DNA of 64,000 nt from an uncultured Candidatus Saccharibacteria bacterium (GTDB taxonomy: Bacteria > Patescibacteriota > Doudnabacteria > UBA920 > 2-01-FULL-46-14), in assembly GCA_964360335.1 (NCBI GenBank), contig CAYHVH010000002.1:804-64803 (forward strand). Reading direction: 5' to 3'. The notes beneath the pieces were generated by a model. The model was not told where the DNA came from. It saw nothing but the letters and a program-made list of their open reading frames with translations, and did no database searches. A program made the translations under genes and the position numbers. Positions 1 to 21,669 of this stretch are shown here, in pieces. The stretch's first letter is position 1. Each line of letters begins with the position of its first letter.

Positions 1-900
1 AAACTTAAAAATCAGTCCATGCATGTTCGTCAGGACCTGGCGCGACATGCGGCAAAATGGTGCTGGATGCCTTATGAATATATAGGTCCCAAGGTATGGA
101 CACAACAGGATTTTTTAGATCGGATTCTTAAATTTGCAAAAAAGAGACAAGAGGCAAACCGTTTGATTAGGGAAAAACTTGCCTACCTGCGTAGATTAAA
201 AACAAGACAAAATTTTCTTGTAAAAAAATACAAAATCTCGAGGGAGGACTTGCGCTTTGTGAACAATTTGCGGCAAATTGCCACGATGCAGGACGAAAAG
301 AAATACAATTGCAGTATAGCCCAGTATGCTTTACAGGAGGCAATCTTTAAACGCATCGCGGACAAATTACATCTTAGTAACCATCAGTTCTGTATGAAAT
401 TTACCGAGGAGGAGCTTTCGAGGGCTCTAAAGAGGGGTGATGCAAATTCAATTACGAAATTGCTACCGGAGCGGCTTAAAGCAATATCTGCGATAGCGAC
501 TCCCCGCCAATTAGTAATCGTGTCGGGTAACAAGGCAATAAGATTTTATGATAAATTCAATCCCAAACTTTCCGGTGCCGAATTTTTAAAGGGACAAATT
601 GCCTCGCGTGGAACGGTACGAGGACTCGCCAAGATTCTAAATGGACCCTACGAGATTGCAAAAGTCAAGCGTGGCAATATTTTAATGGCGCCGATGACAA
701 CGCCTGATTATGTGCCGGCCATGCGTCGCGCTGCGGCAATTGTGACGAACGAAGGTGGTATGACATCGCATGCAGCCATAGTTTCCCGAGAGTTGGGCAT
801 TCCGTGCATAGTTGGGACCAAAATCGCGACTAGCATTTTCAAAAACGGCGACCTGGTCGAAGTGGATGCAAATAAAGGAGTTGTGAGGAAGTTGAAATAA
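1..900 (+). CDS. PEP-utilising-enzyme mobile (phosphohistidine swivel) domain protein, paralog 1; 5'-partial (runs off window start)
   Basis: Reading frame is open from nt 1 (no in-frame stop before the Met at 19). C-terminal ~100 aa carries G-x-aS-x-G...GGMTSHAAIVSRELGIPCIVG, the PEP-utilizers domain signature with a catalytic His. Its W-x-P motif (WCWMPYEY) sits ~200 aa deep in the other paralogs, so roughly 200 codons lie upstream of the window. Confidence 0.8.
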   Translation, partial: KLKNQSMHVRQDLARHAAKWCWMPYEYIGPKVWTQQDFLDRILKFAKKRQEANRLIREKLAYLRRLKTRQNFLVKKYKISREDLRFVNNLRQIATMQDEKKYNCSIAQYALQEAIFKRIADKLHLSNHQFCMKFTEEELSRALKRGDANSITKLLPERLKAISAIATPRQLVIVSGNKAIRFYDKFNPKLSGAEFLKGQIASRGTVRGLAKILNGPYEIAKVKRGNILMAPMTTPDYVPAMRRAAAIVTNEGGMTSHAAIVSRELGIPCIVGTKIATSIFKNGDLVEVDANKGVVRKLK

Positions 901-2399
901 TGCCTGATTATTCTTACATTTACAAAACCAAGTTTCGGAAAATGGGGAAATGGAATTTACTGCCCGCTGACAGCAATTGCAACTGGCATTCCGAGGAGAC
1001 CTCCCGATACTTCAAAAAGATTTTCGGGTTTGGCAAAGGCACCTTCATTATCCAAACCCTGGATGATGACATGCAACACGCTTATTTTCCGCAGTTTTAT
1101 ATAGATAAAATTTATAATTTCATTCTCAGAACGAATAAACAGCATTATAAAAAGTTCGCGAGGATTATCAGCAGTTTTTATCCTTTGCGGAGACAAGCTG
1201 TCAAAGCAATCCCTAAAACCGGAAAAATCGATTTAAAAAAACTTTCAAACAGGAAGCTTGTTGAAGTCTTTAAGTACAACCGTGATTGGGCGCATCGGGT
1301 GACTCCATATGACCAATTTGGCTGGATTGCCGAGGATTATTGGAACCCGGTCATGGAGAAAATCTTGGTCAGACATGGCTTGAAAAAAGGGTCGGATGAA
1401 TTTTTGCGAGTACTTTTTGTGCTGACCAAGCCCGAGGAAATTTCCACGACCTTGATGGAAAAGCGAGATGTCTTGGAACAAGCCATGAAAATAAAAGAGA
1501 AAAAGACCAATTTGATATCTGCTAGTAAATCATTGGCGAAAGAATACGGTTGGATACCGGTATTTACTTTTGGCACGCCCTGGGACAGTAAGCATTATGT
1601 TTCGGAACTGAAAGGAGTTTTGAAAAAAAGTCACCAGGGCCTTTGGCATGAGTATCTGAAACTGAAAAATTATAGACAGATAAGGAATCACGAGCTTCGG
1701 GATGTGGTCAGGAAATATAAGATTTCCAAAGAAGACTTGCAGAAATTCATTGATTTTGGCCTGGCCTTGGATGCCCGCAACGAAGCTGAATATCTGGTCA
1801 GCCTTTGCGGTTTCTACGTTTTACCAATCTATAGTGAAATAGCCAGAAGGTTGTACATTTCGGTTAAGCAGTTACGCAATCTGGTCAAAAGAGAAATTAT
1901 CGCGTGTCTGGAAGATAAAGCCAATGCCCAAGAGATTCTAGAAAATCAGGGCAAGATCATTGGTTGGGTTTTCGACAAAAGCATGTTGCATATGAAGTAT
2001 TTGGATTCCAAAGAAGCCCAAAAGTTTTTCAAGTATCTTAATAAAACTTCCAAAAATCTGCAGGGCAATGATGAAGCCAAAGGCATTTGCGCCAGCCCGG
2101 GCAAAGTTAAGGGCAAGGCGAAAATTATTCATTATCCAAGCGAGGGCGACAAAGTTAAAGAGGGCGATATTTTAATCACCCATGCCACGACTGTTGATTA
2201 CCTGCCGCCAATGAAACTCGCCGCGGCTTATGTTACGGAAGTAGGAGGTCTTACTTGCCATGCGGCCGTGGTGGCGCGTGAATTTGGCGTGCCATGTGTA
2301 GTTGGATTTAAAAACGCGACTAAGAATTTTAAAGACGGCGATTTGGTCGAGGTGGATGCGAATAAGGGGATTGTAAAATTGCTGAAAAAAGCCAAATAG
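900..2399 (+). CDS. PEP-utilising-enzyme swivel-domain protein, paralog 2 (499 aa)
   Basis: ATG at 900 overlaps the paralog 1 stop (TAATG). C-terminus GICASPGKVKGKAKII...GGLTCHAAVVAREFGVPCVVG...GDLVEVDANKG. The N-terminal ~390 aa is unique but shares the K-x-Y-x-W-I-P and EIARRLxxS motifs with the other paralogs. Confidence 0.85.
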   Translation: MPDYSYIYKTKFRKMGKWNLLPADSNCNWHSEETSRYFKKIFGFGKGTFIIQTLDDDMQHAYFPQFYIDKIYNFILRTNKQHYKKFARIISSFYPLRRQAVKAIPKTGKIDLKKLSNRKLVEVFKYNRDWAHRVTPYDQFGWIAEDYWNPVMEKILVRHGLKKGSDEFLRVLFVLTKPEEISTTLMEKRDVLEQAMKIKEKKTNLISASKSLAKEYGWIPVFTFGTPWDSKHYVSELKGVLKKSHQGLWHEYLKLKNYRQIRNHELRDVVRKYKISKEDLQKFIDFGLALDARNEAEYLVSLCGFYVLPIYSEIARRLYISVKQLRNLVKREIIACLEDKANAQEILENQGKIIGWVFDKSMLHMKYLDSKEAQKFFKYLNKTSKNLQGNDEAKGICASPGKVKGKAKIIHYPSEGDKVKEGDILITHATTVDYLPPMKLAAAYVTEVGGLTCHAAVVAREFGVPCVVGFKNATKNFKDGDLVEVDANKGIVKLLKKAK

Positions 2400-2405
2400 A
2401 CTTCT

Positions 2406-3503
2406 ATGAGCAGGTCTATTATCAAAAAAATTCGTGGCAAGAAGTTCATCCGAGCTTGGGATCATTATGATTCGCCAGTATTGTGGGTCGAATTTTTATG
2501 GATAGCTGATATGCAAAAAATGAAAAAACTATTCGGATTTACATATGGTGGCCATTGTTTTGTTTCAAGAAGTCAAAAAACAAGTTTTTACATCAATGCC
2601 GCCAGCGAAAAGAAAGCAACTAAACTGGGAGCTGAGTATTTTTCGAAACCCACTTTTCTTAAAAAATATATTAGTCAAAGTTTACAGGCCGAACAGCGGC
2701 TGTTGAATATTGTGAAAAATTTCAACGAATCTAAAGTTAGACAGTGGAGTAATAAGCAAATAAGAAAGTACTTCAATCCTTTCTGTGACGCCTTTTCCAC
2801 AATAATGGCCTACTATAGAATTTCGCGCCCGGAGTTTTATAAAAAAACTATACTAAATGCTGACTTAGCTCATAAACTAAGGCCGCTAGGTAAAAGAAGA
2901 TTTCATATGCATCGCACATGGATGGAAGCTTTTGAAAAAGCAGAGCCTTTGTTTGCTGAAATTGCCAAAAGAGCTGGCCTGACCACGATGGAAATTATAA
3001 ACTGTACACAGCGAGAGGTGAATACGATCTTAGATAAGTCGGGAATCCCAGTCAATCTGAAAGAAAGAATAAAAGGATTTGAGTTTATATATAAAGAAAA
3101 CAACTTTATTCTGAATACTTTACGTCTTAATGCTAATGTATTGGAGCCAAGGAAGAATATCACTTCGGTTTCGGGACACAATGCTTTCCCTGGAATTGTA
3201 AAAGGAAAAGTTTTATTTATAGCCGAATCTTTGAAAAAAATAACTTTGCCTATGAACGATGTGCCCAAGAGAGCTGTGCTAGTGACTAATATGACCTCAC
3301 CTAATATGCTCTCAATTATGAAAAAGGCCGTTGCGTTTGTTACTGATGAAGGAGGTATGCTTTGCCATGCAGCTATTGTCGCACGTGAGATGAAAAAACC
3401 TTGCATAATCGGCACCAAAATCGCAACCAAAGTCCTGAAGGACGGCGATTTGGTCGAAGTAGATGCGAATAGGGGAGTCGTCAGAATCTTGAAAAGATCT
3501 TGA
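2406..3503 (+). CDS. PEP-utilising-enzyme swivel-domain protein, paralog 3 (365 aa)
   Basis: ATG at 2406 lies 7 nt after the previous stop. C-terminus GGMLCHAAIVAREMKKPCIIGTKIATKVLKDGDLVEVDANRG. N-terminal region is AT-rich and divergent. Confidence 0.85.
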   Translation: MSRSIIKKIRGKKFIRAWDHYDSPVLWVEFLWIADMQKMKKLFGFTYGGHCFVSRSQKTSFYINAASEKKATKLGAEYFSKPTFLKKYISQSLQAEQRLLNIVKNFNESKVRQWSNKQIRKYFNPFCDAFSTIMAYYRISRPEFYKKTILNADLAHKLRPLGKRRFHMHRTWMEAFEKAEPLFAEIAKRAGLTTMEIINCTQREVNTILDKSGIPVNLKERIKGFEFIYKENNFILNTLRLNANVLEPRKNITSVSGHNAFPGIVKGKVLFIAESLKKITLPMNDVPKRAVLVTNMTSPNMLSIMKKAVAFVTDEGGMLCHAAIVAREMKKPCIIGTKIATKVLKDGDLVEVDANRGVVRILKRS

Positions 3504-3504
3504 C

Positions 3505-3541
3505 ATAGAATTCTATATAGAATATTATATAGTTGAAAGGA
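3505..3541 (+). promoter_or_regulatory. Palindromic operator-like site plus RBS upstream of the antitoxin gene
   Basis: Perfect palindrome ATAGAATTCTAT at 3505-3516, followed by an A/T-rich TATA stretch and AAAGGAG 7 nt before the ATG at 3549. This is the usual arrangement for an autoregulated TA operon. Confidence 0.4.
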
Positions 3542-3548
3542 GACTAAT

Positions 3549-3833
3549 ATGCCAAAAATAAGCATTTTACCCGAGACCGCCTCGGTTCAGGAAATTCAGA
3601 GAAATTATCGTCGGCTCCTCGACAAAGTCAAGTCTACAAGGACGCCTTTATTTATTTTGCGCAATAGCCTTCCCGAAGCAGTAATTGTTGATGTCAAATC
3701 CTGGAATGAAATAGTTACCCGCTTGCAAAAGGAAGAGGAGAGGTTAGCTTTAGAGGCCATAAAAACCTTCGAAACAGAGCGAAGGCGAGGTAAACTGAAG
3801 CTTTTGAAGGGCTCTCTTGCGGATTTAATTTAG
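3549..3833 (+). CDS. Phd/YefM-family antitoxin
   Basis: 94-aa protein with an N-terminal motif (VQEIQRNYRRLLDKVKSTRTPLFILRNSLPEAVIVDVKSW) typical of Phd/YefM. Stop sits 6 nt before the toxin ATG. Confidence 0.8.
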   Translation: MPKISILPETASVQEIQRNYRRLLDKVKSTRTPLFILRNSLPEAVIVDVKSWNEIVTRLQKEEERLALEAIKTFETERRRGKLKLLKGSLADLI

Positions 3834-3839
3834 TACCGC

Positions 3840-4106
3840 ATGGAAATTCGTGAGATTTATTATTCTGAGCATTTCAAAAGGGCTCTGAAAAAATTACCAG
3901 CAGAGCTTAAACCACAAATAAGAACCAGGGAAAAGATTTTTAAAAAGAACTGTTTTGACCCGAGGCTTAAAACACACAAGCTGTCAGGTGCACTGAAAAA
4001 CTTCTGGTCTTTCTCAATCACGCATTCCCACCGCGTTCTTTTTCAGTTTTTAGGAGAGAGGAGGGTAGGTTTTATTGATGTAGGGGACCACTCGATTTAT
4101 CAGTAA
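3840..4106 (+). CDS. RelE/ParE-superfamily (YoeB-like) toxin
   Basis: 88 aa. The ...KLSGALKNFWSFSITHSHRVLFQF...IDVGDHSIY pattern is typical of the RelE/YoeB mRNA-interferase fold. Paired with the upstream antitoxin. Confidence 0.8.
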   Translation: MEIREIYYSEHFKRALKKLPAELKPQIRTREKIFKKNCFDPRLKTHKLSGALKNFWSFSITHSHRVLFQFLGERRVGFIDVGDHSIYQ

Positions 4107-4142
4107 ATTTTATATCCTCCAAAGCTGCCCGATTACGACGCT

Positions 4143-5597
4143 ATGAACCGAAAAGGAATTAATTGGCTAGAGGTTGCCAGGCGAGCGAAAGTCCAGTCTA
4201 CCCTGATTACTGATGCCGCTGCCGAAGGCATCAAGCGCGGATACTATAAAAAGTTTCACGACAACAAAGTCAATTTAACTGCCTACCGTCACTTTGATGC
4301 ATCACGGTCGTTTGATGAGGCGGAAGTTGGCTCGGTCGTGGAGTGGCTCTCGGGACAGGAGAAAAAACGCCCTGGCTTTTTGATTCATTTCGCTCGAAAA
4401 TTAGCCAGGGTTTATCTCAATTTTGCAACATGGGCACACAACACAGTTTATACAGATCCGAAAAAATTCTCAAATAGCGAGTTGGCGCGAAGTTTTTGGA
4501 ATTTTTACGTTAGGAGCTTCTGGTTGGTTAATGACTACGATTATATTTTTGTAAACCGTTTTCTCCCCGACGAAATTACCGAAGCGGTCGCCAAAAAAGT
4601 GCCTGATCTTCACAGGCAGACCCAATACCTTTCTGTCCTTTTCGCCACAGACGAGGTGACCCAGATAAAAGCCGATAAATTGAGTATTCATCGGATAGCA
4701 AGTCGGGTTTTAAAGGGTGAAGGTATCGATTCTACGTCGATAAATTCTGCGATTGAGGTTCATTGGAAAAAATTTAAACATTTAAATCGCTATTACTACT
4801 TGCAGCTTGATTACTCGATTGCCGACATTAAACGACGGGTAAGGTTGACTTTGAAAAAACTTCAAAGGAGGAAAAAAGAGTCCGAGATGAACGTTGCCCA
4901 GGAAAGCAGAAGAATATTGGCCAGTCTAGCGTTTCCCCCGAGACTCGTCAAGAAAGTTTATGCAATCAAATCTTTTGGTTACTTGTCTAATGTGTTCGAT
5001 GAAACCATAACTTTTGCAATAAGCCAGTACGACCCGCTGTTTTTGGAAATCGCGCGTCGGCTGGGCCTTACCCGTACGGAACTTGTAATGGCACGGGGTG
5101 AGGAGATCGTAGACGCACTTGTCCACGGCTTAAGAAAAGATTTGAAAAAGCAGCTTCATCTTAGGAGCCAAGATTATGCGCTGGTTTTAGAGAGAGGAGA
5201 GATTGAAATCTTCACAGGAACACAACTCGCACTATACCGAAAACAGGAGCTTAAATCTGAAAATATTTCAAACAGGCTGCGCGTGCTGAAGGGGCAGGCG
5301 GCTTCGCCAGGAAAGGTCCGGGGCCGGGTTAAAGTTCTGTGGGACCTGGAAGAAATAAACAAGGTTAAAAAGGGCGATATTCTAGTTGCCCCCTCCACTT
5401 ACCCCGCCCTTGTACCTGCTATGGAAAAATCAGCAGCGATAGTGACGAACGAAGGAGGACTTCTTTCTCACGCCGCCATTGTCAGTCGAGAAATTGGGAT
5501 TCCTTGCGTCGTCGGCACGAAAATCGCCACCAAAGTCCTCAAAGACGGGGATTTGGTGGAGGTGGATGCGAATAAAGGGGTTGTGCGTAAGTTATGA
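4143..5597 (+). CDS. PEP-utilising-enzyme swivel-domain protein, paralog 4 (484 aa)
   Basis: C-terminus GQAASPGKVRGRVKVL...GGLLSHAAIVSREIGIPCVVGTKIATKVLKDGDLVEVDANKGVVRKL. Stop overlaps the next gene's start (ATGA). Confidence 0.85.
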   Translation: MNRKGINWLEVARRAKVQSTLITDAAAEGIKRGYYKKFHDNKVNLTAYRHFDASRSFDEAEVGSVVEWLSGQEKKRPGFLIHFARKLARVYLNFATWAHNTVYTDPKKFSNSELARSFWNFYVRSFWLVNDYDYIFVNRFLPDEITEAVAKKVPDLHRQTQYLSVLFATDEVTQIKADKLSIHRIASRVLKGEGIDSTSINSAIEVHWKKFKHLNRYYYLQLDYSIADIKRRVRLTLKKLQRRKKESEMNVAQESRRILASLAFPPRLVKKVYAIKSFGYLSNVFDETITFAISQYDPLFLEIARRLGLTRTELVMARGEEIVDALVHGLRKDLKKQLHLRSQDYALVLERGEIEIFTGTQLALYRKQELKSENISNRLRVLKGQAASPGKVRGRVKVLWDLEEINKVKKGDILVAPSTYPALVPAMEKSAAIVTNEGGLLSHAAIVSREIGIPCVVGTKIATKVLKDGDLVEVDANKGVVRKL

Positions 5598-6199
5598 GCA
5601 AAATTAAGCTCATCATCGTCGATTTTTACGGGGTATTAACCTTGGGCAGTTACCGCGAGACATGTCAGTGGATAGCGAAAAAATTCGGGCTAGACTACGA
5701 TAAAGTCTACAAAATCTTTTACTTTAAGTATTTCAATAAAGCGGCGCTGGGGAAGATTACAGAAAGACAATCCTTCGAGCTTCCCCTGAAAGAACTGGGT
5801 CTAAATGAGGATTGGCAAAAGCTCCGCCGGAAACATTTGTCTTTTCAGAAACTTAATAAACCGGTTTTTAGATTTTTTTTGAGTTTACAGAACAGAGGCT
5901 TTCGGATTCTGTTACTTTCAAAAAACACCCCCCGTCAGTTCAAGGAGACGGTCAAGCGACTGCGAATCAGAAGGTATTTCAAAACTATCATTAATACCTT
6001 TGATTTGCGGTTACCCAAAGCCAGCCCCAAAATGATAAAATATGTTCTGGCCAAATTTAAAATACAGCCTGGCGAGGCGGTATTTGTTGATGACCAAGAT
6101 TTTAACCTCGCAGCGCCAAGACGTTTAGGTGTTCATACAATCCTTTACAAAAATTTTCGCGACCTCAAACGCCGGGTCGAGAGATTACTATACTCCTGA
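5594..6199 (+). CDS. HAD-superfamily hydrolase (phosphatase-like)
   Basis: N-terminal IVDFYGVL (DxYGx motif I) and VFVDDQ (motif IV). 201 aa. Translationally coupled to paralog 4. Confidence 0.7.
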   Translation: MSKIKLIIVDFYGVLTLGSYRETCQWIAKKFGLDYDKVYKIFYFKYFNKAALGKITERQSFELPLKELGLNEDWQKLRRKHLSFQKLNKPVFRFFLSLQNRGFRILLLSKNTPRQFKETVKRLRIRRYFKTIINTFDLRLPKASPKMIKYVLAKFKIQPGEAVFVDDQDFNLAAPRRLGVHTILYKNFRDLKRRVERLLYS

Positions 6200-6895
6200 T
6201 TTGCTTTTGTGTGTTTTGGTTTTTAGGTAGTTGCGGAAAAAAGCAAGTTTAGTTTTGTCCTTTTGCCAGCCAAAGGCGTCGTCCACATACCAGTGCAGAA
6301 GCGTGCGCGCGTCTTTTGAAATGATTTTATGCCGGTACGAATAGTTAATAATATCATAGAGATCGCAAAAGGACTGGAGTCGCACTTTGCTGGGTTTAAT
6401 CCAACGACGATACTTCTTGGCATCTTGTCTGCGGTTTGACCTGGAGACCGGAACAATTACCCAATTTATTTTCAAACCCGCTTGTCTGATGTTCTTTATG
6501 AATTTTACCTTGGAAGCCCCGTGCCCCGTAGCGTCATCCACGAGAATCGCGGTCATTCCTTTTTTGAAGTTTCCTTCCAGTGCTTGCGCTGTCCCGCCCT
6601 TTTTCGGCTCTTTGCGAACGTAACCGTGAAGTTTACCCGACATTAGAGAGAGGGCGGTAGCGATTGGTATGCCTGCAGTAACTCCGCCAATAATGCAATC
6701 AAATTTTATTTTCTTGTCCCTTATGAACTTTAGTATTTCTTGGCAAATTATTTTCAGTCTTCGCGGATCAGAAAAGGTCTTTCGCAAATCGGGATAAATC
6801 GGCACATAATTGCCGCTGGTGGTGACTTTGGGCCCTATGACGTAAAAACCCGGTGTTCCGGCAAAAATCTTGATAATGTTTGCACTTTTTACCAT
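6188..6895 (-). CDS. Type I phosphoribosyltransferase (orotate-PRTase-like) with C-terminal extension
   Basis: PRPP-binding loop ILVDDATGHGAS preceded by GGVTAGIPIATAL. The ORF-track N-terminal extension (to 7090) is rejected; start placed at Met66 (ATG whose complement is at 6893-6895). Confidence 0.65.
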   Translation of the reverse strand: MVKSANIIKIFAGTPGFYVIGPKVTTSGNYVPIYPDLRKTFSDPRRLKIICQEILKFIRDKKIKFDCIIGGVTAGIPIATALSLMSGKLHGYVRKEPKKGGTAQALEGNFKKGMTAILVDDATGHGASKVKFIKNIRQAGLKINWVIVPVSRSNRRQDAKKYRRWIKPSKVRLQSFCDLYDIINYSYRHKIISKDARTLLHWYVDDAFGWQKDKTKLAFFRNYLKTKTHKSKSGV

Positions 6896-6986
6896 AGCTG
6901 GATTTAGTATATAAATTCCCGGACAAAAAAAGAAGGGCGGCGCAGAGCTTTTCCAGCTCTGGCCGCCCCGAATCAGTGGAGCCGGC

Positions 6987-7595
6987 CTACTGTCGGCCGA
7001 GGTTGCCGAGGTAGTCGACGTCGAGCAGGCAGTCGCTCTCAAAGGTGAGGATTGCCACGCTACCCGCTTCGAAGCGTGTACCGACCGCATCTAGTTCGAC
7101 TCCCAGCAGCGCGGCCAGTACCGGTTCCAGTCTGCCGCCGCCGTGACTGGCGATCCCGATAATTTTGCCCGGATAACCCCGGACATACTCCAGAATGGCC
7201 TCCGCCCCCTCTTTTCCACGAGCCATGAGTTGCTCGCGGAATTGAGGATCGCTTAATAGCAGTTCTTCAGCCGAAGTGCCGGTTTCCGTTGCGCGTTTCT
7301 TGAGAGCATCAATCTCTTCCGGCGCAAAGGGGTACCGACCGAGCAAAGCGTCCCCCAGTCGGGGATCGGCACTCGTGAGCGGGACGACTTCCCCCATCCC
7401 AATCATGTTGCAGTAGAGCGTGTCGATCGAGCGGAATTGCGGGGACGAAACCGCGACATCGATTGTTAAGCCCATTTCCTTCAGCCTGGAGCCGGATCTA
7501 ACCGCCCTTTTCCTGGATTCCTCCGGTAGCGCGTTCAAGGGCACATCCGAGCCTTCCCGGCTTTCGTGCCGGATAAACAAAACGGTTGTCTTCAT
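6987..7595 (-). CDS. Histidine-phosphatase superfamily protein (PGAM/SixA branch)
   Basis: N-terminal LFIRHESREG (RH catalytic dyad) and C-terminal GIASHGGG (second catalytic His). 202 aa. Visibly more GC-rich than its neighbours. Confidence 0.75.
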   Translation of the reverse strand: MKTTVLFIRHESREGSDVPLNALPEESRKRAVRSGSRLKEMGLTIDVAVSSPQFRSIDTLYCNMIGMGEVVPLTSADPRLGDALLGRYPFAPEEIDALKKRATETGTSAEELLLSDPQFREQLMARGKEGAEAILEYVRGYPGKIIGIASHGGGRLEPVLAALLGVELDAVGTRFEAGSVAILTFESDCLLDVDYLGNLGRQ

Positions 7596-7637
7596 CTTCC
7601 CCTCCGATTTTGGTTTTGGCCATCAAGAGTAGCATGT

Positions 7638-7666
7638 TTGCGGCTGTCCGTCAAGCTCTATATAAT
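7638..7666 (+). promoter_or_regulatory. Sigma-70-like promoter (TTGCGG-17-TATAAT) for paralog 5
   Basis: TTGCGG at 7638-7643, a 17-nt spacer, then TATAAT at 7661-7666. The in-frame ATG at 7679 is 12 nt downstream, giving a near-leaderless transcript. Confidence 0.4.
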
Positions 7667-7678
7667 TCAAATCAGAAT

Positions 7679-9214
7679 ATGGCTATCATTTGGAAAAAAA
7701 AGGAAGCATTGCGCTGCGATTTCAATGTTCCGGCCGACACGATTCCCGGCTGGTATCACCTGCAGACGAAAACCATCGGCCAACACGCGATCACGAAAAG
7801 TCTTTTTGTTTTTGAAAACGGGGTCTTGGCCGGCTATTACCTTCCCAAAAAAGAGCTGCGAAAAATCGCAACTCTCACTCTGCGAGCGGTATTGGAAAAC
7901 CCGACGCGCATCGACCGCGTTCACAAACGAGCCACGGATCTTAACTGGCAGTATTTTCGTTTTGCCGAAAAAATCCGGAAGCTTGATTTAACCAAGCTTA
8001 CCAACCGACAACTCCTTAAGCTCCATTCGCGGCTTTTTAGATTACAGATGCTGAGTCACTGCTATGCTCAACCCACGACTTGGTTTGTGGACAGTGACGG
8101 AAACGATTTAACTAATTATTTGATGAATTTCCTGAAGCGGCGAATTCAGGCCACTCGGGAAAGACTGGATTTTGCCGCTGCTTTCAGCATTTTGACGACA
8201 CCTTCCAGGATAACGCTCGGCAGTCAGGAAGAGAAAGAGTCACTGCAAATCCTGGAGTGGATACAAAAGCAGGCGAAAGTGAAGAACTGGTTTCTTGCCA
8301 AGAACCGTTCGCCATTAAGCCAGAAGTTCACGCAGCTTCCCGCGGCCGCCAGAAGCAAACTTTACCGCCATTATTACAAATGGACCTGGCTCCCGTACGC
8401 ATACACCGGGCCCCCATATAGCTTGGATTATTATTTGGATGTCTGGAGAGGGCTGTTGCGGGAAAGAGTAAATCCGCAAAAGGAGATTAAGGGAAAATCG
8501 CAGCAAGCCCTGGAAACGCGCAGGCGACATGCTGTTCTGTTCAAAAAGCTCAAATTTAGCGGCTATGAAAAGAAATTATTTGATACTGCTGCCGACATCG
8601 TCTGGCTTAAAGGGTTTCGCAAGGATTGTTATTTTCACGGTTTTTTCGTCCTGGATTTGATCCTTGCAGAAATCGGCAAGCGCACGGGTTTAGCCTTGAA
8701 GCAGGTAAAGTTTTTGCTGCCGCTGGAACTGCCCCTGGCGTTGCGCGGCAAAGACCTGACAAATCTTGTGAACGAAAGGATCAATTTCTCGCTGCTGTAT
8801 GGGGTCAAGGGGCGCATCAAAGCTTTGAGTGGCAGAGCCGCGCATGTTTTCTTGAAAAAATTCCGCTTTCAAAGGGAGAGGCGAGAAAGTTTTGGGGGTA
8901 AGCTCTTCGGTACTTGCGCTTGTCCAGGGGCGGCGAGGGGAGCGGTGAGGATCGTGAACTATCCCGAGGAAATGGGCAGGATGAAATCCGGCGATATCAT
9001 GTTGGCGACGCAGACTTATCCGTCATTGGTGCCGGCCATGAAAAAAGCGGCGGCAATCGTGACGGAAGAGGGCGGGCTCACTTGCCATGCCGCAATTGTC
9101 TCTCGAGAGCTCAAAATTCCCTGTATAGTAGGCATAAAGGGCCTGCTTACCTTTTTGAAAGATGGCGATAGGATAGAGGTGGATGCAAATAAAGGGGTGG
9201 TGAGGAAGTTATGA
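7679..9214 (+). CDS. PEP-utilising-enzyme swivel-domain protein, paralog 5
   Basis: C-terminus GTCACPGAARGAVRIV...GGLTCHAAIVSRELKIPCIVG...GDRIEVDANKGVVRKL. Start is ambiguous: the track uses TTG at 7586, and in-frame ATGs occur at 7634 and 7679. 7679 was chosen because of the upstream promoter-like box. Confidence 0.75.
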   Translation: MAIIWKKKEALRCDFNVPADTIPGWYHLQTKTIGQHAITKSLFVFENGVLAGYYLPKKELRKIATLTLRAVLENPTRIDRVHKRATDLNWQYFRFAEKIRKLDLTKLTNRQLLKLHSRLFRLQMLSHCYAQPTTWFVDSDGNDLTNYLMNFLKRRIQATRERLDFAAAFSILTTPSRITLGSQEEKESLQILEWIQKQAKVKNWFLAKNRSPLSQKFTQLPAAARSKLYRHYYKWTWLPYAYTGPPYSLDYYLDVWRGLLRERVNPQKEIKGKSQQALETRRRHAVLFKKLKFSGYEKKLFDTAADIVWLKGFRKDCYFHGFFVLDLILAEIGKRTGLALKQVKFLLPLELPLALRGKDLTNLVNERINFSLLYGVKGRIKALSGRAAHVFLKKFRFQRERRESFGGKLFGTCACPGAARGAVRIVNYPEEMGRMKSGDIMLATQTYPSLVPAMKKAAAIVTEEGGLTCHAAIVSRELKIPCIVGIKGLLTFLKDGDRIEVDANKGVVRKL

Positions 9215-10590
9215 AAATAACTTGGAAACGCTTGTGGGCGAGAAGGTATGCGCCGTTTTTGGGCGGTATCTTCACTCTGGCCTTCAGCAGACGCAACCCA
9301 TACGGGTTCAGTCGGAACAAATTGTTCGTACCGGAGGGAGATTTGCATGCGTGCTATTTTGCAAAACGCGAATTTGAAAACATTGTTCGCAACTACGCCC
9401 GCTTTGTCCGAAAACAAAATTTAAAACGTTATGCCGTACGTTACGAAGCGTATTTTAAACGATTTCTTAAAGGAGCAAAGCAATTCGCCAGGATAAATTA
9501 CGCCACGCTGGACAACCTAGAACTTGCTGACTTATTAGAGAGGATTACGGCATTTTACGCCGATTATGCGGAAGTTCAGTATCTTGGTTTTGTAATTTTA
9601 GAGGGGCCGGGCAGGCAACTGGAAAAAGCATTGGCGCGATACGCTAACCAAACAGAAATTTCGCAATGGGTGGCAACACTCTACAAAATTCCGAAAATTA
9701 CAAAAGCCCGTTTGGAACTACTGCGGCTGGTTCGCGACCATAAGGCCAGCGCGAGCGCGTTGAGGAGATATCTGAAAAAATATTCTTGGATTCCGATATA
9801 TGATTTTGTGGATCGACCCTGGACGCTCAAAGACATAAAAGCCCAGGTCAAGGCCGTCAAAGATGCAGGCGCAGAAATCAAGCAATACCGGGAGAGCAGG
9901 CGCAAGAGTTTGCACAGACTTCATAACTTCCTGCGAAACTTGCAAAGCCGAAAACTGAAAAAACTGATTGAAATCGTCCATACATTTTCGTATCTCAAAG
10001 ATATGCGGGACGACTATCGGCGGCAGACTTATTTTCTTTTGCGCCCATTTTGGCAGGAAGTTGGAAAAAGGCTCGGGGTTACTTTCGTGCAGGCCAATTA
10101 TCTGTTGTCGGAGGAGCTGGTCAGGCTTTTAAGTACGGGGCAGAAGCCCAGCCTCAAGCTGATTTCCGCGAGGCAAAAGACCTATTCATTTTCATTGATA
10201 GGGGGAAAACTCCGCATTTTTGCCGGAGATTTGACCAAGCAATATCTGGTCCAGCATGGTACACAAGAAACAAGTATTCTCAAGGGGACCGCTGCCCATC
10301 CAGGAATTGTGCGCGGCCCCGCGAAAGTTATTTATCATAACGGCGAGTTTGAAAAACTTAGAAAGGGTGACATTTTAGTGACAGTCATGACCCACCCGGA
10401 GTTTTTACCGATAATGAAGCTGGCCGCGGCGTTTGTGACTGACGAAGGCGGAATCACCTGCCATGCCGCAATCGTAGCGCGGGAGCTTGAGAAACCCTGC
10501 GTTATCGGCACGAAAATCGCCACCAAAGTTCTGAAGGACGGCGATTTGGTGGAAGTCGATGCTGACGAAGGAATTGTAAGAAAACTGTAA
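9211..10590 (+). CDS. PEP-utilising-enzyme swivel-domain protein, paralog 6 (459 aa)
   Basis: ATGA overlap with paralog 5. C-terminus GTAAHPGIVRGPAKVI...GGITCHAAIVARELEKPCVIGTKIATKVLKDGDLVEVDADEG. The KKYSWIPIYDF motif is present. Confidence 0.85.
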   Translation: MKITWKRLWARRYAPFLGGIFTLAFSRRNPYGFSRNKLFVPEGDLHACYFAKREFENIVRNYARFVRKQNLKRYAVRYEAYFKRFLKGAKQFARINYATLDNLELADLLERITAFYADYAEVQYLGFVILEGPGRQLEKALARYANQTEISQWVATLYKIPKITKARLELLRLVRDHKASASALRRYLKKYSWIPIYDFVDRPWTLKDIKAQVKAVKDAGAEIKQYRESRRKSLHRLHNFLRNLQSRKLKKLIEIVHTFSYLKDMRDDYRRQTYFLLRPFWQEVGKRLGVTFVQANYLLSEELVRLLSTGQKPSLKLISARQKTYSFSLIGGKLRIFAGDLTKQYLVQHGTQETSILKGTAAHPGIVRGPAKVIYHNGEFEKLRKGDILVTVMTHPEFLPIMKLAAAFVTDEGGITCHAAIVARELEKPCVIGTKIATKVLKDGDLVEVDADEGIVRKL

Positions 10591-10601
10591 CTGTAATAAG
10601 T

Positions 10602-12059
10602 ATGGCGAAATATTTTAAATTCGGGTCGTGGTCTATTAGCATACTGCATTATTCTCTTTACTATTGGAATAAAAGAGAACTAGTTTTTCTGCGCCCAATT
10701 AGGTGGCACCAAGATCAACTAGCTGAATACCTCGGTTACAAGCAAGACGAAAGGCGAATGTATCGGATTTGGAATGATCGAATTGTGAAAGACGCTCAAT
10801 ATATGTATCGGTATGGGAAAGAACACGAAAAGAATTTTAGAAATGTCGTTAATTACTTAAACAAAAAAATATCGAAAGTTAAATCAGCTAAAAGATTAGA
10901 AATTCTTAGAATTTTTAATAAATACTGGTCCCTGCTTTTTCTGTCAGAACCTATCGGTGATATAAATCACACAGTAGATGAAATCTATACTAAAAGGATA
11001 ATGGGCCCCTTGAAGCAAATTCTCTATAAGATTGGCAAGGAAGAAAAGGTTACAGAATATATGCTGGGTTTGACAACGCCTTGGGAGTCTTTGCCAACAC
11101 AGAAAGAAGATATGCAATTCCTACTCTTTGCTAGAGACGTCAATAAAGGGAAAGTTAAAGATGTCAATGCATTTTTTCAAAAACATCTTAAGCAATATGC
11201 TTGGATTCCGGTATGGTATGATAATAAACCCTGGGATATAAATGACTTGAAATCTAGACTAAATTCAGAGCTTAAGTTTGGTGATTTTGCCCAGCGAATT
11301 AATCGACTAAAAAATTACGGAAAAAGTACCAAACTAATCAATCGCAAGCAAAAAGCCGAACTTAAAGTTAGCGGTAGGCTACTTCAGGACATAGACGCTC
11401 TTAGGTACTTCACCTATATTCGGAATCTAGTTGACTTGCACACCGGTTACATAGTGCATAAAGCCAGGCCAATTTATGAAAAAATTGCCAATTTTTTGGA
11501 AATTAGCTTTGATGAGTTAAAATATCTCACTCCGAATGAAATTCGACTTGGTTTGAAAAACAAATTACCGCTAAAAGCTGTTAAAAGTCAAATCACACAG
11601 CGGCAAAAATTTGCTTTGACAATCTTTAGCAGATCAAAACAAAAAGTCTTAGCCGGGCTTAAGGCAAAAAGAGAATATCTAAGAATTAAAGAGGAGATTC
11701 AGAAAGAATCACCTAAGAAAAGTGTGGAATTAAGGGATCAAAAGCTTAGCGGAATTGGTGCCTCCCTCGGTAAGGCCAAGGGCCGGGCAAGGGTAATAAA
11801 AAGCATTTCGGAGTTGAATACGATGAAAGAGGATGAAATTTTGATTGTACCCTCAACTTCTGTTGATTTCGTGGGAGCTATGAAAAAATCGGTCGCGGTA
11901 GTGACAGAGATAGGCGGTATTACTTGTCATGCGGCAATCGTTTCTCGGGAACTTGGCAAGCCTTGTATTGTTAATACCTTAATCGCAACAAAAGTTTTTA
12001 AAACTGGCGATCTTGTGGAAGTAGATGCGAATAAAGGGATAGTAAGAAAATTAACCTAA
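10602..12059 (+). CDS. PEP-utilising-enzyme swivel-domain protein, paralog 7 (485 aa)
   Basis: C-terminus GIGASLGKAKGRARVI...GGITCHAAIVSRELGKPCIVNTLIATKVFKTGDLVEVDANKG. N-terminus is very AT-rich. The KQYAWIPVWYDNKPW motif is present. Confidence 0.85.
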   Translation: MAKYFKFGSWSISILHYSLYYWNKRELVFLRPIRWHQDQLAEYLGYKQDERRMYRIWNDRIVKDAQYMYRYGKEHEKNFRNVVNYLNKKISKVKSAKRLEILRIFNKYWSLLFLSEPIGDINHTVDEIYTKRIMGPLKQILYKIGKEEKVTEYMLGLTTPWESLPTQKEDMQFLLFARDVNKGKVKDVNAFFQKHLKQYAWIPVWYDNKPWDINDLKSRLNSELKFGDFAQRINRLKNYGKSTKLINRKQKAELKVSGRLLQDIDALRYFTYIRNLVDLHTGYIVHKARPIYEKIANFLEISFDELKYLTPNEIRLGLKNKLPLKAVKSQITQRQKFALTIFSRSKQKVLAGLKAKREYLRIKEEIQKESPKKSVELRDQKLSGIGASLGKAKGRARVIKSISELNTMKEDEILIVPSTSVDFVGAMKKSVAVVTEIGGITCHAAIVSRELGKPCIVNTLIATKVFKTGDLVEVDANKGIVRKLT

Positions 12060-17942: not shown

Positions 17943-18908
17943 TTACCACCACCAAATCAGAATTGAAAGCAAAACTATCAGAATAAAAGTAAACAAGTGA
18001 TAACTGGAGTGGCTGCGTTCTATCACCGCTTCGTGTCTAGAAATGATGACGGAATCCGCCGAAAGCACCAGAAGTAAAAACACGCCAAACAGGGTAAAAA
18101 CGGTGCGGCTCAAGTTCCGCGCACTTCCCAGGAAATCAAAGACAGTCGAGCGGGCAGGTGGCGATGGTTCTGGCGCTACGAACGGCTCGGGCGCGCGTGG
18201 CGCTTTTTTTACTACGAGCGGCGGCGACTTGGCTTCTTCGCCGCTTGCCGCAGTCGTGGTCGGGGTGGAAATGGCTTCGGGAACGCTCAAGGGAGGTGGG
18301 ACTCCTGGTGCAGGAGGGGGGAGGGCCGGTGCTTCGGCCTTGACTTTGGGTTTGGGTTTCGCGGCTTCGGTCGGCGCGCCAAATAGGCTGGTAGTGAGGT
18401 TGGTATATCGCCCTTGATAATCGCCGAACAGCGCCGCCAGCCCCTGATCAAAAAAATCGGGATGCAAGAGGTTCGCTCGATGAGTGGGACTATCGATCCA
18501 GGCTTTGACTAATCCCTCGGAGGTTGCAAAATCTACTGCCAAATTTTCGCCCAGGATTTTGTACGGCGTATAACCGGCGGCGACGATTTTCGGCCAGACG
18601 TAGTTGCCATCGGGATCAACGTGAGCGAAGTAGTCGCGATCAATCATGTCTTGCGACTTCTCCGATGCCGCCGTAAGCAACGCTCGGTGGGTGAAGAGGC
18701 GAGTAAGATTGCGGTTCTCCCGCTCCTCGTTGATGAGGGACATCAAGGTTTGAGATTCGACTGCGGCGCTTTCGGCTGACAGGGCTCCCAGAAAAAGGCG
18801 CAGTAAAAGTAAGAGGATGCCGTAAATTAAAAAAGCTTTGTAGGAAAGGACGGGCGGGCGGAAATTATTCTCGGGGGAAGCTATTAAAAAACTGGCGATT
18901 TTGCCCAT
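17943..18908 (-). CDS. CAP/SCP/PR1-like (YkwD-type) domain protein with Pro/Ala-rich linker and C-terminal membrane anchor
   Basis: Central ...YFAHVDPDGNYVWPKIVAAGYTPYKILGENLAVDFATSEGLVKAWIDSPTHRANLLHPDF... matches the CAP domain. PKPKVKAEAPALPPPAPGVPPP linker. Hydrophobic N-terminus (signal/TM) and hydrophobic C-terminus. Confidence 0.7.
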   Translation of the reverse strand: MGKIASFLIASPENNFRPPVLSYKAFLIYGILLLLLRLFLGALSAESAAVESQTLMSLINEERENRNLTRLFTHRALLTAASEKSQDMIDRDYFAHVDPDGNYVWPKIVAAGYTPYKILGENLAVDFATSEGLVKAWIDSPTHRANLLHPDFFDQGLAALFGDYQGRYTNLTTSLFGAPTEAAKPKPKVKAEAPALPPPAPGVPPPLSVPEAISTPTTTAASGEEAKSPPLVVKKAPRAPEPFVAPEPSPPARSTVFDFLGSARNLSRTVFTLFGVFLLLVLSADSVIISRHEAVIERSHSSYHLFTFILIVLLSILIWWW

Positions 18909-18927
18909 AATTTGGTATAATTATAGC

Positions 18928-19293
18928 ATGGCAAGAGTGGGAATGCATCTCTGGTTGGCAGTCACAGCCGTTATTGCGGCCCTGACTGTGGGGCTATGGT
19001 TGATGAGCATGGTCAGTCCCGAGGAGGCTCAAATCTGGCAGCAAGCCGTTGTTTATGGGGCGGCATTTCTGGGAGTATTTGGGCTAGCCACACTTTTAGG
19101 ATATCTTGTGCGTGCGATTTTTTGGCCGGGCGGCCTCCGGTACGAGCACTTGAAATCTTCGAGGCGGCAAGGCATACTCTTGGGCTTTCTGGCCGTGGTT
19201 TCCCTCATTCTCCAAGCGGCCGCCATTTTTAACAGCGGCACGGCCCTGCTGCTCCTGATAATTTTTGGGCTTTTGGAACTTTATGTCCAATAA
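18928..19293 (+). CDS. Small membrane protein, hypothetical (likely leaderless)
   Basis: Extended -10 (TGgTATAAT at 18913-18921) lies 6 nt upstream of the ATG at 18928. The track start is TTG at 18901. 3-4 hydrophobic helices. Confidence 0.5.
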   Translation: MARVGMHLWLAVTAVIAALTVGLWLMSMVSPEEAQIWQQAVVYGAAFLGVFGLATLLGYLVRAIFWPGGLRYEHLKSSRRQGILLGFLAVVSLILQAAAIFNSGTALLLLIIFGLLELYVQ

Positions 19294-19414
19294 AGCAAGC
19301 CTCGGTGACCTAAAGAGGACGGCATTAAAAGAGCTTGATGCGGCAACCAGCTTATCGGCCCTGTTTCTGGTGGAAAAAAGATATTTAGGATATAAAGGAC
19401 GCTTGACCGATTAA
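19283..19414 (+). pseudogene. pheS: Detached 5' segment of pheS (43 codons) ending in a stop
   Basis: Translation is MSNKASLGDLKRTALKELDAATSLSALFLVEKRYLGYKGRLTD*. The RYLGxKGxLT motif matches the conserved N-terminal region of PheS (compare E. coli VEYLGKKGHLT). Confidence 0.5.
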
Positions 19415-19435
19415 GAACGTTAAGCCAATTTTGAC

Positions 19436-20491
19436 ATGGCCGAAAACGACCAACAGAGATCAGACCAAGAGCCTAAGGACGAAGATTTGGAATTTATTGT
19501 CATGCCCCAGGGTGAAGGGCTGGCCGTAGGAAACTCTCTTCCCTCAAAGGCCGAGCCCGGTGCGCGGAGCAAGCCGTCCTTCAAAGTCTGGTTAGTGCTC
19601 CTCGTCCTGCTGCTGGTTTTGCTTGGTGGTTTGGTTTACTGGCGCTATCCGGATGTTCTAGAGCGACTTAATTTCGGCAAGCAGGGACCCGCGTCCTTGC
19701 CGGAGTTGAGCTTGCCTGCCGGGGAAGAGGAACGAGTCGATTCCGACAAGGACGGGCTTACCGACAAGGAGGAATTTGATCTGGCCCTTAATCCGCAAAA
19801 GGCCGACAGTGACGATGACGGCCTGGCAGACAGCGATGAAATCAAGATTTATGGCTCGGACCCGCTGCTTCTGGATACGGACAATGACGGGTTTGACGAC
19901 GGCCGCGAAGTAGCCCTAGGTTACAGTCCTGTAAGCCCGTCCCCAGAGAAAGCCGGTGCCGAGGAACTTCAGCTTTGGACCGAGCGGATTCGCGTGCAGG
20001 GTTTGCATGAACCAACCAAAACCACCTTGGCGCTCAAGAGTTTTGACTCGGACCAGCCGGAGTCGGCCTATGTCAACAGCCAATACGGATATCGGTTGGT
20101 TTTACCCGCGGCCTTGACCTACCGCGAAGCTCAAGGTCAGGGCCTTGTTGGATTTTATGTAGCGGGCACCACCCCGGCCGACAGCGACCCCGCCACAGAC
20201 CCAATCAGCATCAATGTGGCTGTAAAAACGGGAAGCCAAACCTTGGAGGATTGGCTCAAGGACTTCCACCAGCCGGCAGACTATGGAAAAGCGGAAAATC
20301 TGGCAGTGAACAACCTCCAGGCGATACGCCTCCGCGGCCTCAAAACCGAAACCTGTCCCCAGGATAAGACTTTCTTCCTGAGACCAGAGCAAAGCGGAAC
20401 GGTGATTGTCTTGACTTGGACCTGCAATGAAAACACGGCATATAGCCCGATATATGAACAAATTATTACGAGTTTTGAGTTCGTGCAATGA
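19436..20491 (+). CDS. Membrane-anchored protein with thrombospondin-type-3-like Ca-binding Asp repeats
   Basis: Single TM (VWLVLLVLLLVLLGGLVYW), then DSDKDGLTDKEE / DSDDDGLADSDE / DTDNDGFDDGRE repeats (the DxDxDG calcium-binding motif). Confidence 0.7.
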   Translation: MAENDQQRSDQEPKDEDLEFIVMPQGEGLAVGNSLPSKAEPGARSKPSFKVWLVLLVLLLVLLGGLVYWRYPDVLERLNFGKQGPASLPELSLPAGEEERVDSDKDGLTDKEEFDLALNPQKADSDDDGLADSDEIKIYGSDPLLLDTDNDGFDDGREVALGYSPVSPSPEKAGAEELQLWTERIRVQGLHEPTKTTLALKSFDSDQPESAYVNSQYGYRLVLPAALTYREAQGQGLVGFYVAGTTPADSDPATDPISINVAVKTGSQTLEDWLKDFHQPADYGKAENLAVNNLQAIRLRGLKTETCPQDKTFFLRPEQSGTVIVLTWTCNENTAYSPIYEQIITSFEFVQ

Positions 20492-21669
20492 GTAGCATTT
20501 TGTCCACTGATAAAACTTTGCGCGACCATCAGCACATCAAAGTCCAATCGGCTCAAGAAACGCGTCTGAAACAGGAGCTTCAGAGTCGGACCGACGCGGA
20601 AAGCCAGAGGATAGAGCGTTATTTGGCCATGCCCGACTTATCACGTACTGAAGGCAGCCCGCTTCGGGAACTAGTAAAGCGGATAGTTAATCTGCCCGAT
20701 TTTAAGGATTTTGATGTTATCCAGGTCCCCGAGATCGTGCCCGCGGACATTAGTTTTGATTTATTTGATTTTCCGAAAGACCATCCAGCCAGATCAAAAT
20801 CTGATACCTATTACGCGGACTCAAACCACATTCTACGCACGCATACAACTGTGATGTGGTATTACTATCTCAAGCACCCCGCTATTAAAAGACGAATTGC
20901 GAATGGGGAAGCGGTTGGTTCATTCTGCTATGGCAAAGTCTATCGCAAAGATGAAATTGACCGGCATCACATGAATGTATTTCACAATATGGACGGCTGG
21001 TATCTTATCCCAAAGGACCAAAAAATAATTACCAGCCAGGACTTACAGGATGTTCTCGCGATAATTGCCAAATCGAATTTTGGTCTACGGGTAAAATATC
21101 GATTCAACGAAGATACCTTTCCATACACTGTCCCATCATTGGAAATGGAAATCGATAAAGGGGATGGCAAGTGGCTTGAAGTAGTCGGCGCTGGTATTGT
21201 AAAAGGGAGTGTGCTGGACAAATTAGGCGTCGATTCTGCGGAATACAATGGCTGGGCGTTTGGATTTGGATTGGAACGTTTGGCGATGATTAGCATGGAG
21301 CTGCCTGATATTCGGCTGTTTTGGTCCCAGGACGGACGCGTTAAAAAGCAGCTTGTCCTTGGAAACAAATTTAGGGAAGTTTCGAAATTTCCGTCGATCA
21401 CGCGCGATATTTCATTTATCGTTGATAAGAGTTTTGTTCCTAATGATTACTTTGATCTAATACGCGATATTGGCGGAGATCTGGTGGAGGAGGTTCGACT
21501 TTTGGACAAATACGAAGACCTGGAGAAGTTTGGACGAGATAAGGTGAGTTACACTTACCGGGTGGTGTACCGCAGTCCTCAAAGAACCCTGACCGCGGAG
21601 GAAGTAGAAAAGCTGCAAAGCAGACTTTATCAGCAAACAAAGATGCAGTATAAAGCCGACCTGAGATGA
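20488..21669 (+). CDS. pheS: Phenylalanine--tRNA ligase alpha subunit, catalytic portion
   Basis: Class II aaRS motifs: FPKDHPAR (motif 1), GKVYRKDEIDRHHMNVFHNMDG (motif 2), GWAFGFGLERLAM (motif 3). It lacks the N-terminal YLGKKG segment, which lies 1 kb upstream at 19283-19414. No pheT follows. Confidence 0.85.
   Translation: MSSILSTDKTLRDHQHIKVQSAQETRLKQELQSRTDAESQRIERYLAMPDLSRTEGSPLRELVKRIVNLPDFKDFDVIQVPEIVPADISFDLFDFPKDHPARSKSDTYYADSNHILRTHTTVMWYYYLKHPAIKRRIANGEAVGSFCYGKVYRKDEIDRHHMNVFHNMDGWYLIPKDQKIITSQDLQDVLAIIAKSNFGLRVKYRFNEDTFPYTVPSLEMEIDKGDGKWLEVVGAGIVKGSVLDKLGVDSAEYNGWAFGFGLERLAMISMELPDIRLFWSQDGRVKKQLVLGNKFREVSKFPSITRDISFIVDKSFVPNDYFDLIRDIGGDLVEEVRLLDKYEDLEKFGRDKVSYTYRVVYRSPQRTLTAEEVEKLQSRLYQQTKMQYKADLR

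Follow-up and report, generated by a model that had tools for sequence, protein, structure and literature searches.

The closest described relatives of the system considered here are enzymes divided over two proteins. [quoted passage not shown] A 64,000-nt stretch of a Doudnabacteria genome (contig CAYHVH010000002.1, hereafter the window) carries in its positions 1-12059 an array of seven plus-strand open reading frames (ORFs) which end in such a swivel domain and are named here par1 to par7. With a probability of roughly three in four, the seven genes specify the His subunits of an ATP-dependent dikinase which is split and RPH-like and works by the mechanism proposed below.

The initial annotation had placed seven same-strand genes in this region, and the ORF list has one at each of the seven positions. 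The first, par1 (1..900), is represented by the 3' 900 nt of the gene for a 502-aa His subunit (His codon 769-771; PF00391 E 8.8e-29); its complete form, known from an overlapping contig (L001:2585-4093), starts 609 nt upstream of the window and encodes a helical N-terminal domain followed by the swivel. The remaining six are par2 (900..2399; 499 aa; His454, codon 2259-2261; E 4.8e-25), the short par3 (2406..3503; 365 aa; GGMLCH; His321, codon 3366-3368; E 1.4e-25), par4 (4143..5597; 484 aa; GGLLSH; His443, codon 5469-5471; E 1.5e-26), par5 (7679..9214; 511 aa; His470, codon 9086-9088; E 1.6e-25), par6 (9211..10590; 459 aa, with the N-terminal domain at residues 1-345 and the swivel at about 355-459; His418, codon 10462-10464) and par7 (10602..12059; 485 aa; His443, codon 11928-11930; E 2e-21). 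The start of par5 at the ATG at 7679, giving the 511-aa product, is backed by an independent gene call. The proposed translational coupling was confirmed at three junctions, where start and stop overlap as TAATG (par1/par2) or ATGA (par4 with a HAD gene, and par5/par6). The genes, taken at first to be consecutive, are not strictly so, being interrupted by a Phd/YafQ-like pair, the HAD gene and two minus-strand genes (for a phosphoribosyltransferase and a His_Phos_1 protein).

A hidden Markov model (HMM) search bore out the identification of the C-terminal module as a phosphohistidine swivel of PEP-utilizing enzymes (PEP, phosphoenolpyruvate). The PF00391 domain is complete at the C-terminus of all seven proteins (profile positions 2-72 of 72; 75.8-99.4 bits against a gathering cut-off of 23.1 bits; E 2e-21 to 9e-29), this part matches the fold of solved swivel domains, and each has the motif GG-x-[TL]-[CS]-H-AA, in which the His is invariant (from par1 to par7, plus strand: 754-777, 2244-2267, 3351-3374, 5454-5477, 9071-9094, 10447-10470 and 11913-11936). 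Pfam found no other domain in the seven proteins, in agreement with the earlier statement that neither an ATP-grasp nor a PEP/pyruvate barrel is fused to them, and neither PPDK_N nor an additional swivel domain was found elsewhere in the 64-kb window. To call the modules near-identical was too strong, however, since pairwise identity between the paralogs is 48-71% over the last 105 aa and only the final 18 or so residues are nearly identical. The residue at -2 from the catalytic His is Thr in five of the seven and Leu in the other two (par3 and par4); in PEP synthase and pyruvate phosphate dikinase (PPDK), the Thr at this position is a regulatory phosphorylation site.

For the swivel region, PEP synthase gives the best sequence matches (model positions ~345-462 of 798, and the archaeal enzyme 8a8e), which is what decayed pps/ppdK fragments, i.e., N-terminally truncated pseudogenes corresponding to a contiguous mid-region of PEP synthase PpsA, would also give. 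That idea, raised by the initial annotation against itself, is refuted and keeps a probability close to nil: the ORFs, of 365-511 aa, are intact, the N-terminal domains do not match PpsA, the AlphaFold2 (AF2) models are confident (predicted local distance difference test, pLDDT, 94-96), orthologues are conserved across phyla within a family of about 2,300 clusters, and the pattern of codons shows the protein to be under purifying selection.

The N-terminal domains, i.e., the 260-400 residues preceding the swivel, are only 20-30% identical between paralogs, and searched alone against NCBIfam the seven gave noise, with no model matching any of them. Long alignments of the paralogs to RPH-type models are driven by the swivel and were not counted as independent evidence on the N-terminal domain. 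A profile of the par6 N-terminal domain matched no chain of the PDB at E<=1. Nevertheless, the sequences of this domain form one family in the window: the par6 HMM recognises the N-terminal domains of the array at 68.8 down to 29.4 bits (par7 at 53.4 bits), the exception being par3 with 13.8 bits. The family has no characterised member.

Structure prediction pointed to a single relative. The AF2 model of par6, built from a 44-sequence alignment, reached a pLDDT of 93.9 and a predicted template modelling (TM) score of 0.89, and its N-terminal domain (residues 1-345) modelled alone a pLDDT of 96.3. In a Foldseek search with the latter, all of the top six matches were RPH-Lm entries (E ~2e-3, probability 1.00, TMq 0.48-0.57), aligned to the small-molecule-binding domain of RPH across 278 residues, while the first non-RPH match had a probability of 0.10 and a TM score of 0.14. 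Judged by this predicted fold, the rifampin-binding domain of RPH is the only real structural relative of the N-terminal domain, and the earlier view of a diversified domain nearest to that of RPH gained support from the comparison. Loss of RPH residues R666 and E667 abolishes the second phosphotransfer (PMC4844700). HMMER pairs L262-K263-D264 of par6 with RPH Y665-R666-E667, in the strongly conserved basic/acidic par6 helix YLKDMRDDYRR (residues 261-271, window 9991-10023, plus strand), whose alignment runs on to K670 of RPH; the register is uncertain, and a shift by one helical turn would instead pair par6 R266-D267 and R270 with the RPH residues.

The same comparison bears on a protein phosphorelay, in which the swivels would pass phosphate to proteins in the style of Enzyme I and HPr, or would regulate them, with the His_Phos_1 protein of the array acting as a SixA-like phospho-His phosphatase. 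We hold this to be quite unlikely: the N-terminal domain resembles the small-molecule-binding domain of RPH over those 278 residues and not the subdomain with which Enzyme I binds HPr, none of the clusters showed a PEP-binding domain or an HPr-like gene, and the characterised relatives of the same architecture all phosphorylate small molecules.

The swivel proteins had been taken for orphan phosphocarriers, which no longer applies: searching upstream revealed a predicted partner. An exact-protein look-up led to contig L001, among groundwater contigs of the Hainich 0.1-µm filter fraction, which agrees with window 1-6530 without a single mismatch in 6530 nt and reaches 3193 nt further upstream. 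Its extension carries, on the same strand and in this order, an ArsR-type helix-turn-helix (HTH) gene, a gene for a stand-alone 312-aa ATP-grasp (PPDK_N) protein, an NYN gene and the complete par1, which confirms that the array continues upstream as suspected. The ATP-grasp gene (L001:947-1885, same strand as par1) is situated 1.3 kb upstream of the first base of the window, with 700 nt between its end and the par1 start. Its product can be aligned over its whole length with RPH residues 6-316 (E 2e-60) and with PEP synthase 8a8e (2e-68), matches PRK06241 at positions 4-314 of 891, and ends in QSRPITTL, the motif closing the ATP-grasp module in 8a8e. By its sequence, it is a complete ATP-grasp module.

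The residues K22, R117 and T136 of RPH position the ATP phosphates (PMC4844700), and the upstream protein retains K20, R112 and T131 with matching spacing (counted by hand). Because it scores 329 bits against PEP synthase (NF005057) but only 63 bits against PPDK, it looks by sequence like an ATP-grasp of the water-dikinase type. The ArsR/SmtB-type HTH gene (L001:605-886, same strand) stands directly upstream of the ATP-grasp gene, and the NYN-domain gene (L001:1825-2388, same strand) overlaps its 3' end; either could be the operon regulator. Weaker NYN relatives are present in two other arrays (L014 and L015).

A single PPDK_N gene together with three to eight swivel genes recurs in seven other loci (L003, L004, L010, L011, L014, L021 and L025); further loci have arrays of up to ten swivel genes which run past the end of the sampled DNA. 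Moreover, the two parts occur fused. The 755-aa protein P0190 holds an ATP-grasp (residues 1-288, 41% identical to the upstream one), an N-terminal domain of the family (291-621) and a swivel in one chain, and in P0144 (1794 aa) and P0228 (2309 aa) one PPDK_N is fused with three and four N-domain-plus-swivel units, respectively; the last two, if real and not gene-calling read-through, are the whole array in a single chain. Together, the conserved proximity of the genes and these fusions argue strongly that ATP-grasp and His subunits function jointly. A PEP/pyruvate TIM barrel (PF02896) was not annotated in any retrieved cluster, the proteins showing only PF00391.

A search with the N-domain profile gave 2,272 cluster representatives (clustering at 50% identity) at E<=1e-3, 853 of them at E<=1e-10. 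As labelled, the bacterial hosts are Doudna-, Magasanik-, Kerfeld-, Falkow- and Staskawicz-bacteria and 'Saccharibacteria', and the archaeal ones are metagenome-assembled genomes (MAGs) of Nano-, Woese- and Micr-archaeota. One of the latter (L026, GCA_043813365.1, labelled Micrarchaeota) has single par4-type genes on a contig with deoxyhypusine synthase and Rad50-like SMC genes, which we take to be typical of archaea. The family thus appears to span bacteria of the candidate phyla radiation (CPR) and DPANN archaea, for which inter-domain transfer is a possible cause.

The mechanism we propose is modelled by homology on RPH, PpsAB and HpeHI. The stand-alone 312-aa ATP-grasp protein would bind ATP and be docked by a swivel domain, which each of the seven paralogs could supply and whose His would attack the beta-phosphate, with release of AMP and loss of the gamma-phosphate as inorganic phosphate (Pi) in the water-dikinase style. 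The phospho-His domain would then swing back to its own helical N-terminal domain and hand the phosphate to a small molecule bound there. Each paralog would have its own substrate, one ATP module serving many specificity modules, and the co-encoded HAD and His_Phos_1 phosphatases would probably have the phosphorylated products as their targets or return the carrier to its initial state. What the sequences and models show are the identities of the domains, their fold, the linkage and fusion of the genes and their distribution, whereas catalysis, a shared ATP-grasp, small-molecule substrates and the physiological role are inferred from these.

Several points weigh against this proposal. The ATP-grasp gene lies outside the window and is known solely from the overlapping contig; eight other loci (L005, L006, L012, L013, L017, L018, L019 and L026) have no PPDK_N within the sampled DNA; and that one ATP-grasp would be shared by the paralogs is suggested by gene counts only. 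The Arg of the RPH dyad is present in five of the seven paralogs, being replaced by Gln in par1 and Phe in par4 (from a MAFFT alignment that is unreliable there). A protein or polymer as the substrate is possible.

A related chemistry has to be considered as well, namely that of PigC/RedH-type ligases, in which phosphorylation turns a carbonyl or hydroxyl into a leaving group for condensation, making the paralogs biosynthetic ligases. Up to the phospho-intermediate the chemistry is identical, the PigC/RedH models match the ATP-grasp at 241 bits, and beside the swivel they cover upstream parts of some paralogs (par7 residues 327-482, par6 236-456). Nonetheless, all the paralog scores against the PigC/RedH/HapC models (50-89 bits) are far under the equivalog cut-offs (1300-1350), the arrays are not surrounded by a biosynthetic gene cluster, and the co-encoded phosphatases better suit released phospho-products, which together make a ligase function very improbable.

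As for the physiological role of the proposed split dikinase, CPR and DPANN account for much of microbial diversity and have tiny genomes without many standard biosynthetic and kinase genes. Our best guess is that the enzymes help a symbiont of limited biosynthetic capacity to trap or activate the metabolites it scavenges; a trapping role has been suggested for HpeHI by its authors (PMC12167813). A more far-reaching version would be a hub-and-spoke system widespread in CPR and DPANN, with a single ATP-grasp charging up to ten or more interchangeable carriers, each specific for a different metabolite, and dedicated HAD and histidine phosphatases completing the cycles; this we offer tentatively, as a possibility rather than an expectation. 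Two other arrays have further genes embedded (L010:8913-9989 and L014:11420-13728), encoding a protein of the N-formylglutamate-amidohydrolase family, an M20 peptidase and a protein with the carbamoyl-phosphate-binding domain of aspartate/ornithine carbamoyltransferases, and these may hint at amino-acid-related substrates.

Orthologues elsewhere indicate how old the paralogs are. The most widely conserved member is par6, since many CPR and DPANN MAGs carry an orthologue that matches it from end to end at 40-52% identity; par4 defines a separate orthogroup, found in CPR and in Micrarchaeota-labelled MAGs and 35-52% identical along the whole protein, N-domain orthologues of par2 at 52-53% identity occur in L003 and L012, and the adjacency of par5 and par6 is kept in L007 and L021. 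Overall, par2, par4, par5 and par6 have full-length orthologues in other CPR genomes (33-53% identity), while none close was found for par1, par3 and par7 in the sampled loci. The swivels follow orthology, their mean identity being 68.7% between cross-genome orthologues vs 57.6% between paralogs of the same genome. The same codon is used at only 32-57% of the identical residues, the synonymous sites being scrambled. Recent gene conversion as the source of the conserved C-termini was ruled out by the codon mismatch and by the swivels following orthology.

Because swivels follow orthology and identical residues often differ in codon, the uniform C-termini reflect purifying selection, not gene conversion, and this fits the docking of all paralogs on one ATP-grasp. 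Judged from these comparisons, the paralogs are old, separately conserved lineages without recent local diversification, contrary to the initial picture of a diversifying family. The GC content of the array ranges from 0.369 in par7, its minimum, over 0.378 in par3 and 0.418 in par2 to 0.492 in par5 and 0.586 in the His_Phos_1 gene, against about 0.51 outside it in the same window; the mosaic may mean that members have different origins or ages. The array looks like a conserved core plus variable members, because par1, par3 and par7 have no close orthologue and the GC content varies from 0.37 to 0.49 across it.

Another reading of the role, that of the initial annotation, is a multi-specificity arsenal, with enzymes that would phosphorylate antibiotics or toxic metabolites in the manner of RPH, or serve in competition, and evolve fast toward new targets. 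The changing composition of the arrays between genomes, with three members lacking close orthologues, fits such a role, as do the GC mosaic and RPH being the sole structural relative of the N-terminal domain. It is unlikely all the same: the orthogroups of par2, par4, par5 and par6 are kept full-length across distant CPR lineages (par4 and par6 also in DPANN-labelled MAGs), the swivel domains follow orthology, no kinase component matched a PADLOC defence model, the scores of the paralogs against the RPH equivalogs NF041857 and NF000283 (36-79 bits) are far under the cut-offs of 999 and 1700, and the array sits among housekeeping genes.

Among the genes interrupting the array, two are candidate accessory enzymes of the proposed dikinase. 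The HAD-family phosphatase gene (5594..6199, plus strand; PF00702 E 5.6e-16), whose start overlaps the par4 stop, has close relatives in or beside the arrays L020 (1e-77), L021 (4e-67) and L011 (3e-10), and a HAD gene is embedded in the L024 array as well. The 202-aa protein of the histidine-phosphatase superfamily (branch 1; 6987..7595, minus strand) matches PF00300 weakly (E 4.5e-6), and His_Phos_1 genes are embedded in the arrays L004, L010 and L025, the last having two. Of the HAD phosphatases and SixA-like phosphatase seen by the initial annotation, the recurrence in other arrays supports both kinds; only one HAD was found in the array, not several, a second HAD of the window lying far from it (23817-24527). 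A fused form exists too: P0065 (746 aa) is of the par6 type, at 38% full-length identity to par6, and bears a 285-aa N-terminal extension in which HAD motif I (DVDGVL) and a weak match to T6PP_C occur; this HAD-like N-terminus showed no similarity to the window HAD.

The other minus-strand gene (6188..6895) encodes an orotate-phosphoribosyltransferase-like protein (NF001729 E 6.5e-28, under the cut-off; 235 aa as called elsewhere), whose link to the array is uncertain; a Pribosyltran gene is also close to the L004 array. The toxin-antitoxin pair consists of a Phd/YefM antitoxin gene (3549-3833, plus strand; PF02604 E 1.5e-8) and a YafQ/RelE-like toxin gene (3840-4106, plus strand), the latter a weak match under its cut-off (PF15738 E 9e-4). 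The pair recurs on contigs of the same population (L001 and L022), and no such pair was seen in the gene tables covered for arrays of other genomes. It is probably an unrelated insertion, and no link was found to the phosphoryl-relay theme in which it had been included. Genes for IS200/IS605-type Y1 transposases lie within two other arrays (L005:16746-17309 and L025:2324-2866).

The remainder of the window is ordinary chromosome, with genes for UvrD/PD-(D/E)XK, GyrB, NusG, L1, Tmk and others, and the closest named relatives of its GyrB belong to Candidatus Doudnabacteria (Patescibacteria/CPR; 70-82% identity). Across the whole 64 kb, no tRNA genes and no Rfam families at the gathering score were found. 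A 393-aa protein (20488-21669, plus strand) combines a PheS-type class II catalytic core (PF01409) with a C-terminal FDX-ACB domain (PF03147), the domain make-up of the monomeric mitochondrial-type PheRS, unlike bacterial PheS/PheT. At 17943-20491, a minus-strand CAP-domain protein (cysteine-rich secretory protein family) adjoins a protein with bacterial TSP3 repeats, both probably being surface or secreted proteins.

The array amounts to about 10 kb of a Doudnabacteria genome given over to a single type of enzyme in seven paralogs, and up to ten or more are present in related genomes. In the source annotations, members of the family are called 'PEP-utilizing enzyme' or even 'phosphoenolpyruvate synthase/pyruvate phosphate dikinase', labels which can insert a false gluconeogenic step into metabolic reconstructions. 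Reading them as a split RPH-like dikinase whose ATP module is shared provides a hypothesis concrete enough to be tested biochemically, and would extend the recently defined group of two-component dikinases past aromatic catabolism. One ATP module with many specificity modules would be of interest to enzyme engineers, and the hub-and-spoke version, if true, would be a major route for ultra-small symbionts to trap, activate or recycle compounds scavenged from the host.

Compared with known systems, PEP synthase (PpsA; 8A8E, 2OLS) is the closest in sequence, both in the swivel (E 1e-50, profile) and in the ATP-grasp, and has the GG-x-T-[CS]-H motif in common with the paralogs; it differs in that an RPH-like helical domain precedes the swivel here and no TIM barrel was found in the proteins. 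PigC, RedH and HapC have the same ATP-grasp and swivel modules and an RPH-type helical substrate domain, but are single-chain enzymes of 880 aa in pigment gene clusters. Enzyme I of the phosphotransferase system takes its phosphate from PEP via a C-terminal barrel and passes it to HPr, whereas neither barrel nor HPr is present here, and its model TIGR01417 matches the paralogs with 32-43 bits over the swivel only (cut-off 341.7). RPH (5HV1, 5FBT; PMC4844700) is a single 865-aa chain, while the ATP-grasp is a separate gene here, and the rifampin-binding domain of RPH, of about 430 aa, contrasts with N-terminal domains of about 260-400 aa, with 13-17% identity over the N-terminal domain.

The likeness is greatest to HpeHI, CreHI and PpsAB. 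In these, too, a separate ATP-grasp subunit (HpeI or PpsB) is encoded next to the gene for a His subunit that consists of an RPH-type substrate domain followed by a C-terminal swivel, and by analogy the expected chemistry would be the same, ATP + X-OH -> AMP + Pi + X-O-P via phospho-His. On the other hand, their His subunits have about 600-640 aa vs 365-511 aa here, their hosts are aromatic degraders and not CPR and DPANN, and the arrays have recurrent HAD (window, L011, L020, L021 and L024) and His_Phos_1 genes. The N-terminal domains of the paralogs are smaller and have no detectable sequence similarity to those of HpeH, CreH and PpsA, as judged via the 600-aa PRK08296-type models, which we take to represent the PpsA-like group and which match only the last ~105 aa (the swivel) of the paralogs, and not via the direct sequences. 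At -2 from the His, HpeH, CreH, PpsA and likewise RPH have Met (PMC12167813), in contrast to the PEP-synthase-like Thr or Leu of the window paralogs. The ratio of ATP-grasp to His subunits is 1:1 there, but 1:7 in this array and between 1:3 and 1:8 in the other loci, with arrays reaching ten. No literature on such arrays in CPR or Patescibacteria was found. One ATP-grasp to 3-10 His subunits, recurring in CPR and DPANN, appears to be undescribed; the architecture itself, which the initial annotation had thought undescribed, is already known from the two-component small-molecule dikinases (PMC12167813), and the array is probably a split RPH-like dikinase of that described kind.

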